Notes under the pieces: generated by a model
The model's input: the letters and a program-made list of their open reading frames with translations, nothing else
The model's database searches: none
Told to the model about the DNA's origin: nothing
Program-made: the position numbers and the translations under genes
Assembly (NCBI GenBank): GCA_948762045.1
Contig: CAQBPW010000043.1
Coordinates: 1 to 31,985 of the forward strand
Source: an uncultured Lachnospiraceae bacterium
Lineage (GTDB): Bacteria > Bacillota > Clostridia > Lachnospirales > Lachnospiraceae
Length of the DNA: 31,985 nucleotides
Reading direction: 5' to 3'
In this document: positions 3,008 to 19,712 of the stretch, one piece after another
Position numbering within the stretch: the first letter of the stretch is position 1
How the letters are laid out: every line of letters starts with the position of its first letter

Positions 3008-3815
3008 AATTTGCCCTCCTCTCCAACTCCTCTCCGCTCATCCGATAGACCGCATCAATAATCCGATTTCGATAAGAAGCATTTCCGTCTCCCTTTTCCA
3101 TTCTCTCCCATGCCACTTCTCCAGCAATCCCCATCACACAGACAGCAGCCGCACAAGCCTCCAATTTCCGCTCAGGATTTGCCGCCAAATAGGCAGCCGT
3201 CACAGCCGAAAGCTGACATCCGGTTCCTGTAATTTTGCTCATCTCAGGACGTCCGTTTCGAATAATATAACTATGCCTTTCATCCAAAACCAAATCAATC
3301 GCTCCCGTACAGACAAGAATACAATGTCTTTCTTTTGCAAATGCCTGAAAAATCAAGATCATTTCTTCCAGATTTTCTTCTGTCACCACATCCATTACAT
3401 TGGCATCCACTCCCTGCGTATTTCCGCTTCCAAACACCAAAGCCTTTAGTTCCGAACTATTTCCCCGAATACAGTCAAAGGAAATCTCCCGCATCAGTGA
3501 AAGAGCCGTATTGGTTCGAAACATACTAGCTCCAGCTCCCACCGGATCGAATACTACACAATGCCCCAATTTCACTGCCTGTTTCCCTGCAGCAAACATA
3601 GCCGGAACCGTATGCTGATTCAACGTCCCAATATTAATCGTCAGCCCGTCACAAATCGAAGTAATCTCCGCCGCCTCTTCCAAATCATCCGCCATAATCG
3701 GACTTGCTTTACAAGCAAGCAGCACATTTGCCACATCATTCACCGTTACATAATTTGTAATATTATGAATTAACGGCATCTTTCTTTCCACAGCTTCCAA
3801 ACATTCTTTTAACAT
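2994..3815 (-). CDS. thiM: Hydroxyethylthiazole kinase ThiM
   Basis: 273 aa; PLIHNITNYVTVNDVANVLLACKASPIMA ThiM signature; RBS AAAGGAGGAATG upstream. Confidence 0.9.
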   Translation of the reverse strand: MLKECLEAVERKMPLIHNITNYVTVNDVANVLLACKASPIMADDLEEAAEITSICDGLTINIGTLNQHTVPAMFAAGKQAVKLGHCVVFDPVGAGASMFRTNTALSLMREISFDCIRGNSSELKALVFGSGNTQGVDANVMDVVTEENLEEMILIFQAFAKERHCILVCTGAIDLVLDERHSYIIRNGRPEMSKITGTGCQLSAVTAAYLAANPERKLEACAAAVCVMGIAGEVAWERMEKGDGNASYRNRIIDAVYRMSGEELERRANYEMR

Positions 3816-3846
3816 ATCACATTCCTCCTTTTCTTGGAGAACCTCT

Positions 3847-3897
3847 AATCAAAGGAAATTCGGAATCCGCTCCGCTACTTCCTTGATAGGTTAAAAA
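3847..3897 (+). repeat. Family-2 repeat, short ('empty-site') form, inside thiM leader
   Basis: aatcaaaggaaattcggaatccgctccgctacttccttgataggttaaaa; matches ends of long copies at 6381 and 30002 but lacks their internal hairpin block. Confidence 0.7.
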
Positions 3898-4061
3898 TAA
3901 GCCGTCCCTTTCCCTGTCATACCAAACCTGCCATCCCTTCCACCTGTCACAATGGAACCTCTACCCTCCTTCTACAATCAAACAAGAAAAATTTATCTTC
4001 CCCTGCTCATCTACCAAAATCCGTCAGCTTACTGAACGATTCCTTTGAACACCCATATACC

Positions 4062-4157
4062 ATCGAGTAGGAAAATTTCCTCTCCTTACTCGCTGCACCA
4101 AGCGTCCATCAGCTCCGCTAACATCGTTCCCTTGGACGCCCGCATACATAAAAAAAT
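4062..4157 (-). repeat. Family-3 structured element, copy A (downstream of riboswitch terminator, in thiM leader)
   Basis: minus strand: TTTTTTTATGTA...AAGGGAACGATGTTAGCGGAGCTGAT...GCGAGTAAGGAG...CCTACTCGAT; aligns with copies at 15510 and 6597, with G-U-compatible compensatory changes in the stem. Confidence 0.6.
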
Positions 4158-4182
4158 GCAGACACGCAAAAAGCATATCTGC
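4146..4182 (-). terminator. Intrinsic terminator; expression platform of the TPP riboswitch
   Basis: minus strand TGCAGAtATGCtttttGCgTgTCTGCA followed by TTTTTTT, directly 3' of the aptamer. Confidence 0.6.
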
Positions 4183-4195
4183 ACCGTTCTTCCGC

Positions 4196-4290
4196 AAATG
4201 ATGTCCCTACGTTGGCATTATCCAAATCAGGTTTTAAGGGTAAAAGCCTCACATGCTTACTCTCAGCCTATTCTAATAAGCTCCCCATAT
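4196..4290 (-). promoter_or_regulatory. TPP (THI-box) riboswitch aptamer controlling thiMEDC
   Basis: minus strand GGGGAGC...AGGCTGAGAG...ACCCTTAAAACCTGATTTGGATAATGCCAACGTAGGGA matches the TPP riboswitch consensus (CUGAGA box; ACCUGAUCUGGAUAAUGCCAGCGUAGGGA). Confidence 0.9.
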
Positions 4291-4296
4291 ATTTCT

Positions 4297-4330
4297 ATTA
4301 TAACCTCTTTTTAAAAAAACACAATCCCCT
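4297..4330 (-). promoter_or_regulatory. Sigma-A type promoter of the thi operon
   Basis: minus strand TTGTGT-16-TATAAT about 7 nt upstream of the riboswitch 5' end. Confidence 0.5.
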
Positions 4331-4365
4331 TTTTCCAACAAAATCCTTTAACCCCTCCCAACACC

Positions 4366-4535
4366 ATACCTCATTTGAACCTCTATTTTTTACTGAAATT
4401 ATTCGAACCAAGTCCAATCAAATCCAACACCATACCTCATTTGAACTCCTATCTTTTACTGAAATTGGTCCAACCAAGTCCAATCAAATCCAACATCGTA
4501 CCTCATTTGAGCCTCTATCTTTTACTCTATCGGCA
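4366..4535. repeat. Tandem direct repeat, about 65-66 bp unit x about 2.6
   Basis: caacaccatacctcatttgaacctctat(t)ttttactgaaatt..tc.aaccaagtccaatcaaatc repeated head-to-tail; this is what produces the repetitive spurious ORF 4212..4541. Confidence 0.85.
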
Positions 4536-4552
4536 GGATAAATCAGCCAGAA

Positions 4553-4793
4553 CAAAGAAGCAATTTCTTGCTGACGTGACTTCGGAGAAAAGTTAGAAAG
4601 TCTTATGCTTTTGTCGATCCACTAGGATTTTTTGCCATTCCCGAATGGCAAAAAAAGGGGTGTGTTTAGCCCGCTGCACGGGCGAATTGCACCCCGGTCC
4701 GTCCGGCTGGATGCATCAAAATTCAAAAGCGTTAGACTTTCTTACTTTTCGGAGAGCGGAACGTCAGCAAGAAATTGCTTCTTTGTTCTAGCG
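4553..4793 (+). repeat. Family-1 structured palindromic repeat, copy 1b
   Basis: about 70-bp self-complementary arms (cagccagaacaaagaagcaatttcttgctgacgtgacttcgg... / ...ccgaaaagtaagaaagtctaacgcttttg rc) around a conserved 110-bp core with tttttgccattcccgaatggcaaaaaa and gcccgctgcacgggc hairpins. Confidence 0.85.
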
Positions 4794-4828
4794 TCCCCCC
4801 ACCCCCATCCAATCATGAAAAAATCCCC

Positions 4829-6289
4829 CTACCCCTGAGTCCGAACCTCATCCAAAAGCCCCATTTTCAACTCATAATAATCCGGTGTCATATCCAAATA
4901 GTGATTATGCGGATTCTCCAACCGCTGCTCCTCCTCCCAAATCTCATTCTCCAACTGCTTATTTACATACTCCGCAATTTCCTTTAAACTTTCCTCTGGA
5001 TAAACACAAACCCCATTTAAAAACACCGGCACCTGCAGCACCTTCCCCGTACAACGTTCAAAAAATCGATTCTTCCAAGGCTTAATCGGATCTACATACC
5101 GCACAGGCTTAGTAAAATCAATTTCTTCTCCCTTCTTAGCAATCATATCCGCCACAGCCTTCCCGCTCTCATCAAAAATCCGATACACCTCCTTAATCCC
5201 AGGATTGGTAATCTTTTCCACATTCTCCGATACCTTAATCCGCGGCTCAAATCTCCCATTTTCCTCTACAGCAGAAATCTTATAAACCGCACCAAACACC
5301 GGATCAGACTTTGAAGTAATCAGCCGCTCTCCTACCCCAAAACTATCAATTTTTGCCCCCTGATTCAGCAAAGAAGTAATCGTATACTCGTCCAAACTAT
5401 TAGAAGCGACAATCTTACAATCTGACAACCCGGCAGCGTCCAATAGCTTCCTTGCCTTCTTCGAAAGATAAGCCAAATCTCCACTGTCAATCCGCACTCC
5501 TTTTAACCGTTTTCCAAGTGGCTCTAGCACTTCCTTTGCCACACGAATCGCATTAGGAATCCCGCTTTTAATCACATCATAAGTATCGATTAATAAAACC
5601 GTATTATCTGGATAACATTCTGCATATTTTTTAAATGCAGTAAATTCATCCCGGTAAAACATCACCCAGCTATGAGCCATTGTCCCGCTTACCGGAATCT
5701 GAAACATCTGCCCGGCAAGCACGGTAGCAGTCGAACCCACCCCGCCAATGTAAGCCGCTCTCGCCCCATACACAGCCGCATCCATATTGTGTGCCCGTCT
5801 GGCTCCAAAATCCGAAACTCCTCTTCCCTGTGCCGTCTTTACAATCCGCTTTGTCTTTGTTGCAATCAAAGACTGATGGTTAATCTGAAGCAAAATCGCC
5901 GTCTCAATCAACTGTGCATCAATCAAAGGTGCAATCACCGTAAGAATCGGTTCATTTGGATACATAATTGTTCCTTCTCGAAACGCATAAATATCTCCAG
6001 TAAACTTAAAATCTCCTAAATACTTTAAAAAGTCCTCTTCAAAAATCTGCTGTTCCCTTAAATAAGCAATATCTTCCTCCGAAAAATGCAGTTCCTCAAT
6101 ATATTCAATAATCTGCTGCAGCCCAGCAAAAATCGAATACCCCGCCTGATCGGGATTCCGCCGATAAAATACATCAAACGCCACCCGAGCATCCCTATTC
6201 TCGTTATGAAAATAACCATTGCTCATTGTCATCTCATAAAAATCCATTACCATTGATAAATTTCGTTCTCTACTCTGTTTAATACCCAT
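4829..6289 (-). CDS. pncB: Nicotinate phosphoribosyltransferase (start trimmed to MGIKQ with GGAGAGG RBS)
   Basis: NAPRTase family pattern (GTMAHSWV, RIDSGDLAYLSKKARKLLD, ~490 aa). Confidence 0.85.
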   Translation of the reverse strand: MGIKQSRERNLSMVMDFYEMTMSNGYFHNENRDARVAFDVFYRRNPDQAGYSIFAGLQQIIEYIEELHFSEEDIAYLREQQIFEEDFLKYLGDFKFTGDIYAFREGTIMYPNEPILTVIAPLIDAQLIETAILLQINHQSLIATKTKRIVKTAQGRGVSDFGARRAHNMDAAVYGARAAYIGGVGSTATVLAGQMFQIPVSGTMAHSWVMFYRDEFTAFKKYAECYPDNTVLLIDTYDVIKSGIPNAIRVAKEVLEPLGKRLKGVRIDSGDLAYLSKKARKLLDAAGLSDCKIVASNSLDEYTITSLLNQGAKIDSFGVGERLITSKSDPVFGAVYKISAVEENGRFEPRIKVSENVEKITNPGIKEVYRIFDESGKAVADMIAKKGEEIDFTKPVRYVDPIKPWKNRFFERCTGKVLQVPVFLNGVCVYPEESLKEIAEYVNKQLENEIWEEEQRLENPHNHYLDMTPDYYELKMGLLDEVRTQG

Positions 6290-6380
6290 AATTCCTCTCC
6301 TCGTTAAAATAAAATAAATCATGTTTTACCTAGTTTACATCATAATCCTAAAAAAGTATAGCAAAACTTGCATTTTTGAG

Positions 6381-6540
6381 TCAAATCGGATATTCGCAAT
6401 CCGCTTTGCTACTTGCTCATAACCTCATAGCTGCTATCGCAGCTTTTCAGTGGGAGTCTGCACTCCCACTGAAACAAGGAAGTCCCCCACTTTCGCCTTG
6501 GCGGCTTAGAAGCGGGGGACTTCCTTGATGAGGTTAAAAA
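6381..6540 (+). repeat. Family-2 repeat, long form with nested hairpins
   Basis: tcaaatcggatattcgcaatccgctttgctacttgctcataacctcat, then internal hairpins (agctgctatcgcagct; tttcagtgggagtctgcactcccactgaaa; caaggaagtccccc...gggggacttccttg), then atgaggttaaaa; first 50 nt identical to 31936-31985. Confidence 0.8.
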
Positions 6541-6596
6541 ATTATCAATTTTATGTTGCACCCCTATCTCAATCATAAAAAATACCCCAAAATAAA

Positions 6597-6645
6597 TCGA
6601 GTAGGGAAATAAATTTCTCCCTACTCATTCTGCTGACATAACTAT
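6597..6645 (-). terminator. Rho-independent terminator of the MVP-like gene; also family-3 copy B, short form
   Basis: minus strand GAGTAGGGA-gaaatttatt-TCCCTACTC followed by GATTTATTTTGGGGTATTTTTT; shares atcgagtaggg...ctgctgacat with family-3 copies A and C. Confidence 0.7.
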
Positions 6646-19164: not shown

Positions 19165-19318
19165 ACTCCTAAACTACATCCTTCCTAATTCAAAATCCCA
19201 TCTCTATCCACACACCAAAAAATATCATACCACTCCTCATTCCACCAAACCACCCCAAAATTCCCTCCCATTCCCACCTGAATAAAAAATAAAAATCAAA
19301 TCTATCGCCAGAAAGAAC

Positions 19319-19566
19319 CAGCTGGAGTTTGGAAGCCCTTTCTCTATGCAGTGACTTCGGAGAAAAGTTAGAAAGTCTTATGCCTCTGTCGATCTCCTAG
19401 GATTTTTGCCATCTTCTGATGGCAAAAAAGGGGTGTGTTTAGCCCGCTGCACGGGCGAATTGCACCCCGGTCCGTCCGGTTGGATATATTTTCATTCAGA
19501 GGCATTAGACTTTCTTACTTTTCGGAGAGCGGAACAGCATAGAGAAAGGGCTTCCAAACTCCAGCG
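19319..19566 (+). repeat. Family-1 structured palindromic repeat, copy 1e
   Basis: arms ccagctggagtttggaagccctttctctatgcagtgacttcgg... / ...gcatagagaaagggcttccaaactccagcg. Internal hairpin has a compensatory pair change (gccatc-ttct-gatggc vs gccatt-ctcg-aatggc). Confidence 0.85.
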
Positions 19567-19712
19567 TCCTCTACACCATCCCCCAGCTTTTCCATCCTAA
19601 TATCCACACATCATCCCCCAACTTTCCCATCTCAATATTCACACCATCCCCCCAACTTTCCCATCTCAGTATCCACACCATTCCCATTCCCCTCAACCTT
19701 CACTTTTTTCTA

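Follow-up and report, generated by a model that had tools for sequence, protein, structure and literature searches.

The hairpin block upstream of pncB in a Lachnospiraceae genome belongs to a small mobile repeat that appears to be undescribed

Introduction

What is the block of hairpins that precedes pncB in an uncultured Lachnospiraceae bacterium, and how did it come to be there? The block is about 160 bases long and lies in a 31,985-nucleotide stretch of DNA (contig CAQBPW010000043.1, positions 1 to 31,985, of assembly GCA_948762045.1), which is referred to here as the window. An initial annotation placed it at 6381–6540 and described it as the long form of a repeat, family 2, that also exists in intermediate and short forms. 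All of the sequences quoted in that annotation are present at the positions given for them. It was proposed there that a cassette of three hairpins had inserted into a resident short form so as to create a palindrome with host sequence. The comparisons described below lead to a different answer: the block belongs to a small and apparently undescribed mobile repeat, of which copies are scattered through many gut Lachnospiraceae genomes. Loci from other genomes are designated by L and a number where they must be told apart.

Results

An empty site upstream of pncB

Homologues of PncB at 91–96% identity are found in sister lineages. In one lineage, whose PncB is 95% identical, the site upstream of pncB is empty in two independent contigs and assemblies, L220 and L221. 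The empty site can be abbreviated as TTTTTAA followed by CAAAAATGC; it reads GATTGATATTTTTTTAA joined directly to CAAAAATGCAAGTTTTACTATACT, and the equivalent in the window reads ATTGATAATTTTTTAA, then 155 nt of additional DNA, then CAAAAATGCAAGTTTTGCTATACT. Quoted at greater length, the empty site is AAGATTGATATTTTTTTAA followed immediately by CAAAAATGCAAGTTTTACTATACTTTTTT, and the filled site is AAAATTGATAATTTTTTAA, the insert beginning with CCTCATCAAGG and ending with CCGATTTGACT, and CAAAAATGCAAGTTTTGCTATACTTTTTT. By this comparison, the inserted DNA is a complete (long) copy of the element at 6379–6533 on the minus strand, with a boundary that is ambiguous by 1 nt (6378–6532 is equally possible). 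A hidden Markov model (HMM) built from 46 full copies of other genomes matches it at 6382–6538 (E = 1.6e-41). The interval first proposed does hold the block, but its bases 6534–6540 are the host target and not part of the element.

The TTTAA(C) that seems to form the first bases of the element is host DNA because it is uninterrupted in the empty site. This host target, TTTTTTAA(C), occupies 6533–6541 on the minus strand; the element follows immediately 3' of it, and TAAC supplies the outer pairs of the closing helix described below. The 155 nt entered the pncB site as a single unit, directly 3' of host TTTAA(C) and on the gene-carrying strand. There are no duplicated target bases in the filled/empty comparison at this site, and no direct repeat in the flanks of 68 copies. 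A mobile unit is shown by this comparison, whether the L220 site is ancestral or would be the product of precise excision. No additional empty site was obtained from the gerA and zf-HC2 flanks in sister lineages or from the L109/L040 pair, which are rearranged or too diverged.

Structure of the element

The strand that is here called structured is opposite to the one given in the annotation and is the minus strand for the pncB copy. It is predicted to fold as a four-way junction without linkers, in which a closing helix (P1) encloses three hairpins; a tail of 40 nt comes after the junction. The order in a full copy is (host TTTAAC), CNNAU, hairpin 3, hairpin 2, hairpin 1, AUNNG-GUUA and UGAGCAAGUAGCGAAGCGGAUUGCGAAUAUCCGCUUGAC. 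Hairpin 3 is long and branched, hairpin 2 has 12–13 bp and hairpin 1 has 5–6 bp with a loop that is mostly GAA, GGA or GUA.

In the pncB copy, all on the minus strand, the 5' strand of P1 is UAACCUCAU at 6528–6536, of which the UAA(C) part is host-derived, and the 3' strand is AUGAGGUUA at 6420–6428. Hairpin 3, defined by fold and covariation, occupies 6475–6527 and is without 6 nt (TGGGTT) that are present in other strains of the species. Hairpin 2 at 6445–6474 has 13 bp, and hairpin 1 at 6429–6444 has 6 bp and the loop GAUA, in place of the GAA, GGA or GUA of most other copies. The tail module, UGAGCAAGUAGCAAAGCGGAUUGCGAAUAUCCGAUUUGAC at 6380–6419, is nearly invariant across genera in the alignment of copies and aligns to the hairpin of the Rfam family Clostridiales-1. 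The annotation's description of the three hairpins and of the taacctcat/atgaggtta inverted repeat agrees with the computed fold, and the helix of the inverted repeat covaries.

Support for the junction comes from compensatory change. RNAalifold predicted 42 pairs from 46 copies, 25 of them with compensatory changes. The pairs of a curated 43-pair structure were then counted, with controls in which the partners were slid and with 500 shuffles. Here, 97.5% of the cells are paired, as against 33–48% with the partners slid; 24 of the 43 pairs changed on both sides, as against 5–8; and the covariation score is 0.431, as against 0.07 or less. On four of the five measures no shuffle reached the observed value, and 12 did so for further pair types. 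By helix, P1 is 97.1% paired with six of nine pairs changed on both sides, hairpin 2 is 99.3% paired with nine of 12 pairs so changed, and in hairpin 1 the count is three of four. The distinct subfamilies that feed this covariation are AACCUCAU, AACCGAAU, AACCAAAU, AACCGAGU, AACCUUAU, GAACGCAG, GAACAUC and UAUAAAAG. The predicted four-way junction on the structured strand is thereby shown to be supported by covariation.

Both strands of the pncB copy fold stably as single-stranded DNA (ssDNA), with energies of -56.5 kcal/mol for the minus strand (z = -12.5) and -51.8 kcal/mol for the plus strand (z = -10.7). Of 48 full copies, 45 fold more stably on the structured strand (means of -79.0 versus -70.5 kcal/mol, p = 6e-9), and the consensus helices on this strand contain approximately 66 G.U cells versus approximately 14 A.C cells. 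The tail can be folded in two ways. The first pairs GCGGAU with AUCCGC, where one pair is U-A in 27 copies and U.G in 19. The second is the hairpin AUGAG[CAA]GUA-GC(GAA)GC-GGA[UUG]CGAAU, in which one pair is C:G in 105 copies and has changed to G:C in 19 copies from several lineages, with a U.G wobble (as read on the structured strand) in five and a mismatch in four.

The target and a proposed internal guide

The outer 3–4 bp of P1 are formed by host TAAC and an element-internal GTTA, the four bases just before the tail. This GUUA, which ends the 3' strand of P1, is proposed to be a guide that pairs with the target, on the basis of covariation and the empty site. The palindrome with host sequence that the annotation had described is therefore borne out for these outer pairs, where the empty site identifies TAAC as host, and fails for the rest of the helix. 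Across subfamilies, the flank and the guide covary in four to five states (TAAC/GTTA, TGAA/TTCA, TATA/TATA and TAAT/ATTA). TT followed by TAAC or TGAAC stands beside 56–62 of the 68 copies, and this preceding TT is unpaired. In addition, where copies stand in tandem (L035, L100, L083 and L106), the element–target junction is the exact point at which they meet; this arrangement favours cleavage behind TTTAAC or TTTGAAC and an element whose right end is TTGAC or TTTAC plus 1–2 nt. In eight of 47 cases, the stop codon of the upstream gene is the TAA or TGA of the target.

The family in other genomes

One genome per bacterial species was scanned with the pattern ATTCGSAATYCGCTNNNCTACT, and the core motif was found in at least 120 loci, almost all of them Lachnospiraceae among the matches listed. 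Carriers among these matches are Blautia, Lachnospira, Acetitomaculum, Mediterraneibacter, Dorea, ‘Ruminococcus’ and ‘Eubacterium’ species, Roseburia, Hespellia and metagenome-assembled genomes (MAGs) from mouse gut. Many of the listed matches lie 20–45 nt from a contig end, a position characteristic of repeats that are present in many copies. The HMM finds 175 matches within the 120 listed genome loci and five in the window. It finds none in approximately 500 kb around the pncB homologues of other Lachnospiraceae (80 pncB loci) and none in approximately 50 kb of sister lineages of the window's species. The copies are intergenic and multi-copy, and their distribution is patchy.

Copies at unrelated loci are 94–98% identical across genera, as between Lachnospira pectinoschiza and Acetitomaculum ruminis (isolate genomes) and between Blautia and Mediterraneibacter. 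Locus L008, from the mouse-gut MAG MGBC128194, is identical to the right end of the window, which therefore is part of this MAG or adjoins it. A full-text literature search found no description of the element family. Phage and plasmid origins were considered and rejected: among 2.9 million viral contigs there are three matches to the family, nine unannotated faecal ‘Bacteriophage sp.’ contigs also match and a plasmid collection gave no matches, so that such collections are essentially free of the family.

A variant of the tail is found directly upstream of a Fur-family gene, followed by a different set of hairpins (L045:5884–5920, L056:606–638 and L105). The tail therefore also occurs outside the context of the four-way junction.

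Truncated copies and their origin

Five related copies had been described in the window, and the count is correct. The 22-nt pattern of the 5' module, ATTCGSAATCCGCTYYRCTACT, matches five times (at 3858, 6392, 15389 on the minus strand, 30013 and 31947), the 21-nt 3' module matches four times and neither matches in any of 100 shuffles; the HMM from foreign copies finds exactly these five. Their locations were also described correctly. A short, tail-only copy at 3847–3889 (minus strand) lies in the thiM leader, 30 nt before the ATG at 3815 and behind the thiamine pyrophosphate (TPP) riboswitch at 4187–4297 (minus strand), with its host TAAC and T-run at 3890–3897; it is present in all contigs of the same species. 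A second short copy, at 15379–15421 in the opposite orientation (plus strand), has its host T-run and TAAC at 15370–15378 and is approximately 230 nt from tRNA-Leu (15648–15731). The intermediate copy at 30002–30103 (minus strand, by HMM) lies between 99-nt inverted arms at 29377–29475 and 30148–30246; its P1 is intact and the guide is retained, hairpin 1 and the 5' arm of hairpin 2 are decayed and the rest is deleted. The last copy, at 31936–31985 (minus strand) upstream of a GerA-family gene, comprises the tail and the start of P1 of a hairpin-3-only copy that is cut by the window end and is complete in L209:1732–1851 and in L008. The 50-nt identity claimed between the copies at 6381 and 31936 is exact, with 6379–6428 and 31934–31983 being 100% identical.

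How are the forms related? The long, intermediate and short forms do belong together, and the alignment of genomic copies shows the same relationship in other genomes. A truncated form can in every case be aligned to a long copy from its own genome or subfamily by opening one internal gap, the ends of which lie in short direct repeats. For the short form these deletion ends are ACTT(G/A/C)CT, a sequence shared by the tail and the 3' arm of hairpin 3; for a hairpin-1-only form they are ATCTG or CAC; and in the hairpin-3-only form, hairpins 1 and 2 are excised exactly. In each genome, the short forms keep the subfamily-specific strand of P1 with its partner gone, for example CTTGATTCGGTTAAA in L110 and CTTGATAGTGTTAAA in L103. 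The short, hairpin-1-only, hairpin-3-only and intermediate forms are best read as deletions between short direct repeats within a long copy. As these repeats are built into the design of the element, identical deletion junctions can arise independently. The direction of change proposed in the annotation is thus reversed: the whole 155-nt unit inserts, and the short forms would follow from it.

Two lineages can be recognised in the window by the end of the structured strand. Lineage A, ending in GAAUAUCCGAUUUGACU, comprises the long copy at 6379–6533 and the hairpin-3-only copy at 31936. Lineage B, ending in GAAUUUCCUUUGAUU, comprises the intermediate copy and both short copies; these share the end variant GAATTTCCTTTGATT, which the long copy does not have, and the short copies are therefore not derived from the window's long copy. 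The P1 of lineage B is probably AACCTAT/ATAGGTT, judging from L078. The short copies at 3847–3889 and 15379–15421 are probably dead relics that can no longer move, since the guide and the AUGAG of the tail are lost.

Orientation and the search for an enzyme

Among tandem neighbouring genes, 55 are co-oriented with the structured strand and nine are opposed. The structured strand also coincides with the strand that has more G at the third position of codons (the G3-rich strand) in 106 of 129 copies (p = 6e-14). The replication-direction test was made by proxy, with GC skew at third codon positions (GC3 skew) standing in for a mapped origin and terminus. The skew is +0.25 where the element and the genes on both sides point the same way. 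Where the neighbours converge or diverge (33 contexts), it is +0.19 for the co-oriented neighbour and -0.165 for the opposed one, the co-oriented value being the higher in 27 (p = 3e-4). By this proxy, copy orientation is shown to follow a replication-type strand asymmetry. In IS200/IS605 elements, one-strand insertion into the lagging-strand template predicts such an orientation bias.

The element itself has no coding capacity. No linked or partner gene recurs among 889 neighbouring open reading frames (ORFs), where the only clusters are of the ABC, AraC, MatE, SDF and Fur families, and there are no pairs of head and tail fragments that bracket a transposase. A search of approximately 1.5 Mb of fetched loci for a Y1 HUH transposase (TnpA/RAYT), made with an approximate IS200 TnpA probe, returned only a 21-aa pseudogene remnant in L208. 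This remnant resembles the N-terminus of IS200 TnpA and has an in-frame stop; it lies at L208:3702–3764 (minus strand) in viral contig IMGVR_UViG_3300010275_000290, 1.4 kb from a full family-2 copy (L208:5165–5327).

Comparison with described families

At the gathering threshold, Rfam recognises only the TPP riboswitch and one tRNA in the window, and the element is uncovered in 36 loci. ARAGORN finds only tRNA-Leu in the window, and a tRNA-like element was rejected. A classical miniature inverted-repeat transposable element (MITE) was rejected as well. The element is small, non-coding and multi-copy, as MITEs are, and among the neighbouring ORFs no autonomous partner is found; it has no terminal inverted repeats, one arm of P1 being at the left end and partly host and the other 40 nt inside the right end, and neither the empty site nor the 68 flanks show a target duplication.

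The closest functional analogues, by described properties, appear to be the miniature elements derived from IS200/IS605 (PATEs) and the REP/RAYT repeats; the listed features of these families, and of BOX and Correia, are established knowledge. Like them, the element has no terminal inverted repeats or target duplication and has hairpins near its ends, inserts strand-specifically in one orientation 3' of a fixed short sequence that pairs with a short guide by a hairpin, shows a replication-strand orientation bias and is multi-copy, intergenic and non-coding. The tail, GTAG-CGAA-(GCGGAT..ATCCGC), recalls the GTAG head and palindrome of REP sequences, which we take as a lead only. There are also differences: a Y1 transposase was not found near any of the copies, a four-way junction plus tail takes the place of two similar subterminal hairpins, the proposed guide is approximately 110 nt from the left end and is a Watson–Crick continuation of an internal helix, and the right end (TTGAC) resembles the target (TTAAC). 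With BOX of Streptococcus pneumoniae and Correia (NEMIS) of Neisseria, it shares a modular, hairpin-rich intergenic design, long and short forms that differ by internal modules or deletions, and the ability to supply promoter parts and to sit in transcripts. The likeness is one of described properties in a different phylum or host, and Correia elements, in contrast, have 26-bp terminal inverted repeats and a TA duplication.

Two Rfam families give sub-threshold matches. The consistent best on the structured strand is Clostridiales-1 (RF01699), with 18.4, 23.4 and 24.8 bits in three subfamilies versus a gathering score of 48, and its conserved hairpin (UGAGCAuGaAGcg..cgCGGAaUgCGAAu) aligns with high posterior probability in all three scans. 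The two share the strand, the host group (Clostridiales of the human gut), the hairpin UGAGCA-G-AGC..GCGGA-UGCGAAU with its GCAN/NUGC helix and at least one long hairpin before it. The GCAA/UUGC helix of the Clostridiales-1 type is kept in the element, with the C:G to G:C change in 19 copies. The conserved hairpin is inside an outer helix in the Rfam consensus, whereas it is outside P1 in the element, and Clostridiales-1 is probably a cousin and not the element's own family. Clostridiales-1 was described as a candidate small RNA (sRNA) motif, to which no function was given and in connection with which repetitiveness was not mentioned (Weinberg et al. 2010, PMC2864571). The second family, RAGATH-25 (RF03050), reaches 18.7 bits versus a gathering score of 49; here the match takes in only a third of the element, from the upper part of hairpin 2 through AAGGAAGUCCCCC and its hairpin, and it is not on the structured strand but on the other.

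Consequences at pncB and thiM

All of the long ORFs of the window are on the minus strand. In the order of this strand, the stop of an 812-aa gene (6654) is followed by a terminator-like hairpin (6627–6598), the host T-run and TAAC, the element, a promoter-like site and pncB. The terminator-like hairpin together with its T tract (6589–6627, minus strand) belongs to the 812-aa gene and lies outside the element. The annotation had suggested a plus-strand promoter, TTGCAT-17-TATTCG, which was not detected; the only strong promoter-like site is TTGACT-18-TATACT on the minus strand (6384–6355), reading into pncB, with 10 of 12 matches and a TG. Its -35 box comes from the last bases of the element. 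The true start of pncB is the ATG at 6289, with the ribosome-binding site AGGAGAGG.

At the empty site, the corresponding sequence is TTAACA-16-TATACT, from which it follows that the earlier -35 box was broken up by the insertion and that the end of the element (TTGACT) took its place. A general outward promoter was rejected, as a -10 box lies 16–19 nt past the terminal TTGAC or TTTAC in 14 of 101 copies versus 10–17 in shifted controls, and the pncB case is therefore local. A conserved cis-regulator of pncB or thiM was rejected as well, being absent at orthologous positions in relatives (none of the 80 pncB loci of other Lachnospiraceae). The element is absent upstream of pncB in the sister lineages L219–L222, and there is no copy anywhere in L218–L223, including the thiM leaders of L218, L220 and L223.

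Several features of the neighbourhood were observed in passing. From the TPP aptamer to the thiM start (3815–4297, minus strand) there are approximately 370 nt here versus approximately 230 nt in L218; the additional leader sequence, of which the short family-2 copy is a part, could affect thiM expression. The spacer between pncB and thiM is 1013 nt here, with three tandem 66-nt units at 4358–4555, versus 295 nt in L218, where it holds the riboswitch only. The 812-aa ORF (6654–9092, minus strand) matches the Pfam domains MVP_shoulder and Vault_3 and is vault-like. In L219, pncB directly follows an FtsA-like gene with a 27-nt spacer. Compared with L219, therefore, the 812-aa gene is an insertion, and family-1 and family-2 repeats lie on either side of it. 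In L218 (446–1159), a resolvase/HTH_17 gene immediately upstream of pncB replaces the vault-like gene, which points to repeated rearrangement at the pncB locus.

Other repeats were also noted. Family 1 (approximately 210–250 nt, with 32-nt inverted arms approximately 180 nt apart) has at least five copies in the window, at 1–147, 4526–4807, 9164–9433, 15090–15324 and 19301–19580; no copy precedes the zf-HC2 gene in sister lineage L228, and family 1 thus looks like an insertion as well. The 99-nt inverted repeat around the intermediate copy is 96% complementary, and each arm belongs to a hairpin-forming unit. Small hairpins are found inside or beside family-2 copies of other genomes: ATCATAAGG and CCTTATGAT, approximately 20 nt apart, follow the ACTTG of the tail in L028, L042 (two copies), L083 and L114, and GGGTGTTTGACACCC stands before the P1 strand in L021 and L104. 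Both kinds are real nested hairpin insertions.

Discussion

The reading that we favour, with moderate confidence, is that 6379–6533 holds one complete copy of an insertion element that is small, non-coding and non-autonomous, that is moved in trans, probably by way of ssDNA, and that is dispersed in many copies among many Lachnospiraceae. An enzyme encoded elsewhere would recognise the conserved 40-nt tail, and movement would proceed through a single-stranded intermediate, as in IS200/IS605 and REP/RAYT. The target would be chosen by base pairing with the internal guide. Here, the intramolecular part of P1 (CNNAU/AUNNG) would leave GUUA free to capture TAAC in exposed ssDNA, and this capture would set the 3' end of the target against the first base of the element. 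The element is rated as belonging among the small non-autonomous bacterial insertion elements, with an unusual architecture and a testable targeting rule.

Several points weigh against this reading. There is a single clean empty site (on two contigs), and both the exact ends and the guide–target rule depend on one locus plus patterns of conservation. No presence/absence variation is seen among the fetched strains of the window's species, in which the copies are identical and fixed, and recent movement is unseen. The copies are related to one another, so the pair statistics are not independent events, and some of the matches come from possibly contaminated metagenome bins (e.g., an ‘Eggerthellaceae’ bin). 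The orientation bias and the G.U/G.T asymmetry are equally expected under selection on an RNA transcribed with the neighbouring genes. Finally, no transposase is found near any copy.

The strongest of the alternatives, which is possible but unlikely, is that the element is primarily a structured RNA related to Clostridiales-1, with its dispersal being secondary. Transcribed together with neighbouring genes or next to them, it would stabilise RNA, offer a site for processing or protein binding, or act as an sRNA. This is compatible with mobility. Such a role would fit the strong covariation, the confinement of G.U pairs to the gene-sense strand and the 55 to 9 co-orientation with neighbouring genes. 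It would also fit the compensatory tail pair (C:G in 105, G:C in 19), the same-strand alignment of the tail to the Clostridiales-1 hairpin in three subfamilies (at 18.4, 23.4 and 24.8 bits) and the position of the thiM-leader copy within a 5' untranslated region. The long copy, however, lies between a terminator and the pncB promoter, to which it gives the -35 box, and is thus upstream of the likely transcription start. The element reaches no Rfam family at gathering score in the window or the 36 loci, it is absent at orthologous positions in relatives and so is tied to no single gene, and its orientation tracks GC3 skew even in convergent and divergent contexts. Its hairpin loops, moreover, are mostly C-GNA-G and not GNRA or UNCG. 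The sequence d(GCGAAGC) is a very stable DNA mini-hairpin; the GCGAAGC apices of the element match it, which is a lead only.

A bolder version of the mobile-element reading is doubtful. It holds that this is a new type of guide-directed non-autonomous element, in which a 4–5-nt guide would extend an intramolecular helix onto the target, thereby setting the point of insertion, and an enzyme other than that of IS200/IS605 would act in trans through the tail; Clostridiales-1 and RAGATH-25 would then be fragments of the same superfamily and not sRNA genes.

Could the copies instead have spread as RNA, in the manner of short interspersed elements (SINEs)? A read-through transcript would be reverse-transcribed and inserted at guide-paired DNA sites, as in the pairing of intron- and exon-binding sites (IBS/EBS) of group II introns. 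In most contexts the sense strand of transcription is the structured one, G.U pairs are present, the target is complementary to an internal sequence with insertion directly 3' of it, and no DNA transposase is found nearby, all of which this route would explain. It is nonetheless improbable, as there is no reverse transcriptase, poly-A or priming feature, and the element is far below the size of a group II ribozyme. Insertion is precise and without 5' truncation, the truncations being internal, and orientation tracks the replication-type skew even where transcription is uninformative.

We give very little credence to the model with which the locus was first described, namely that the short form is an ancestral resident into which a three-hairpin cassette inserts after GCTACT. 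Extra small hairpins have truly been inserted in copies of L028, L042, L083, L021 and L104, and the short repeats at the junctions could in principle be read as 4–7-nt duplications. The empty site, however, is without the whole element, including the tail and the short-form sequence. The short forms already hold the unpaired helix strand of their subfamily (ATTCGGTT, ATAGTGTT or ATAGGTT), exactly as deletion predicts; this is hard to explain by a cassette, which would have to arrive already bearing the complement. Furthermore, there are several truncations (hairpin 1 only, hairpin 3 only and other mixtures), each of which is one gap in a long copy.

Least credible of all is a reading in which the copies would not be transposable units and would instead serve an integron-like or other site-specific system as places of recombination. 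They do resemble attC sites in being strand-specific folded palindromes of variable length with conserved ends, downstream of and co-oriented with genes, and the end motifs TTTAAC and GGTTA loosely recall RYYYAAC and GTTRRRY. Against this, GTTATGA misfits GTTRRRY, the conserved 40-nt tail is outside the palindrome, the copies are scattered and not arrayed and no integrase is found among the neighbouring ORFs. The gene context led us to reject the reading, the neighbours being core housekeeping genes (polA, coaE, ftsA-like, pncB and thiM) and not cassettes.

The element read as mobile has consequences at several levels. If the guide–target rule holds, it would be a simple natural example of target choice by base pairing; it would also move at least one long-standing orphan among candidate sRNA motifs, Clostridiales-1, into a mobile-element context. 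Copies sit in promoters and leaders, as at pncB, where the -35 box was replaced, and at thiM, where another lies 30 nt before the gene and behind the TPP riboswitch. The repeats also break assemblies of gut Lachnospiraceae, many contigs of which end 20–45 nt from the motif, and the near-identity of copies across genera is a marker of recent DNA flow among abundant gut bacteria.

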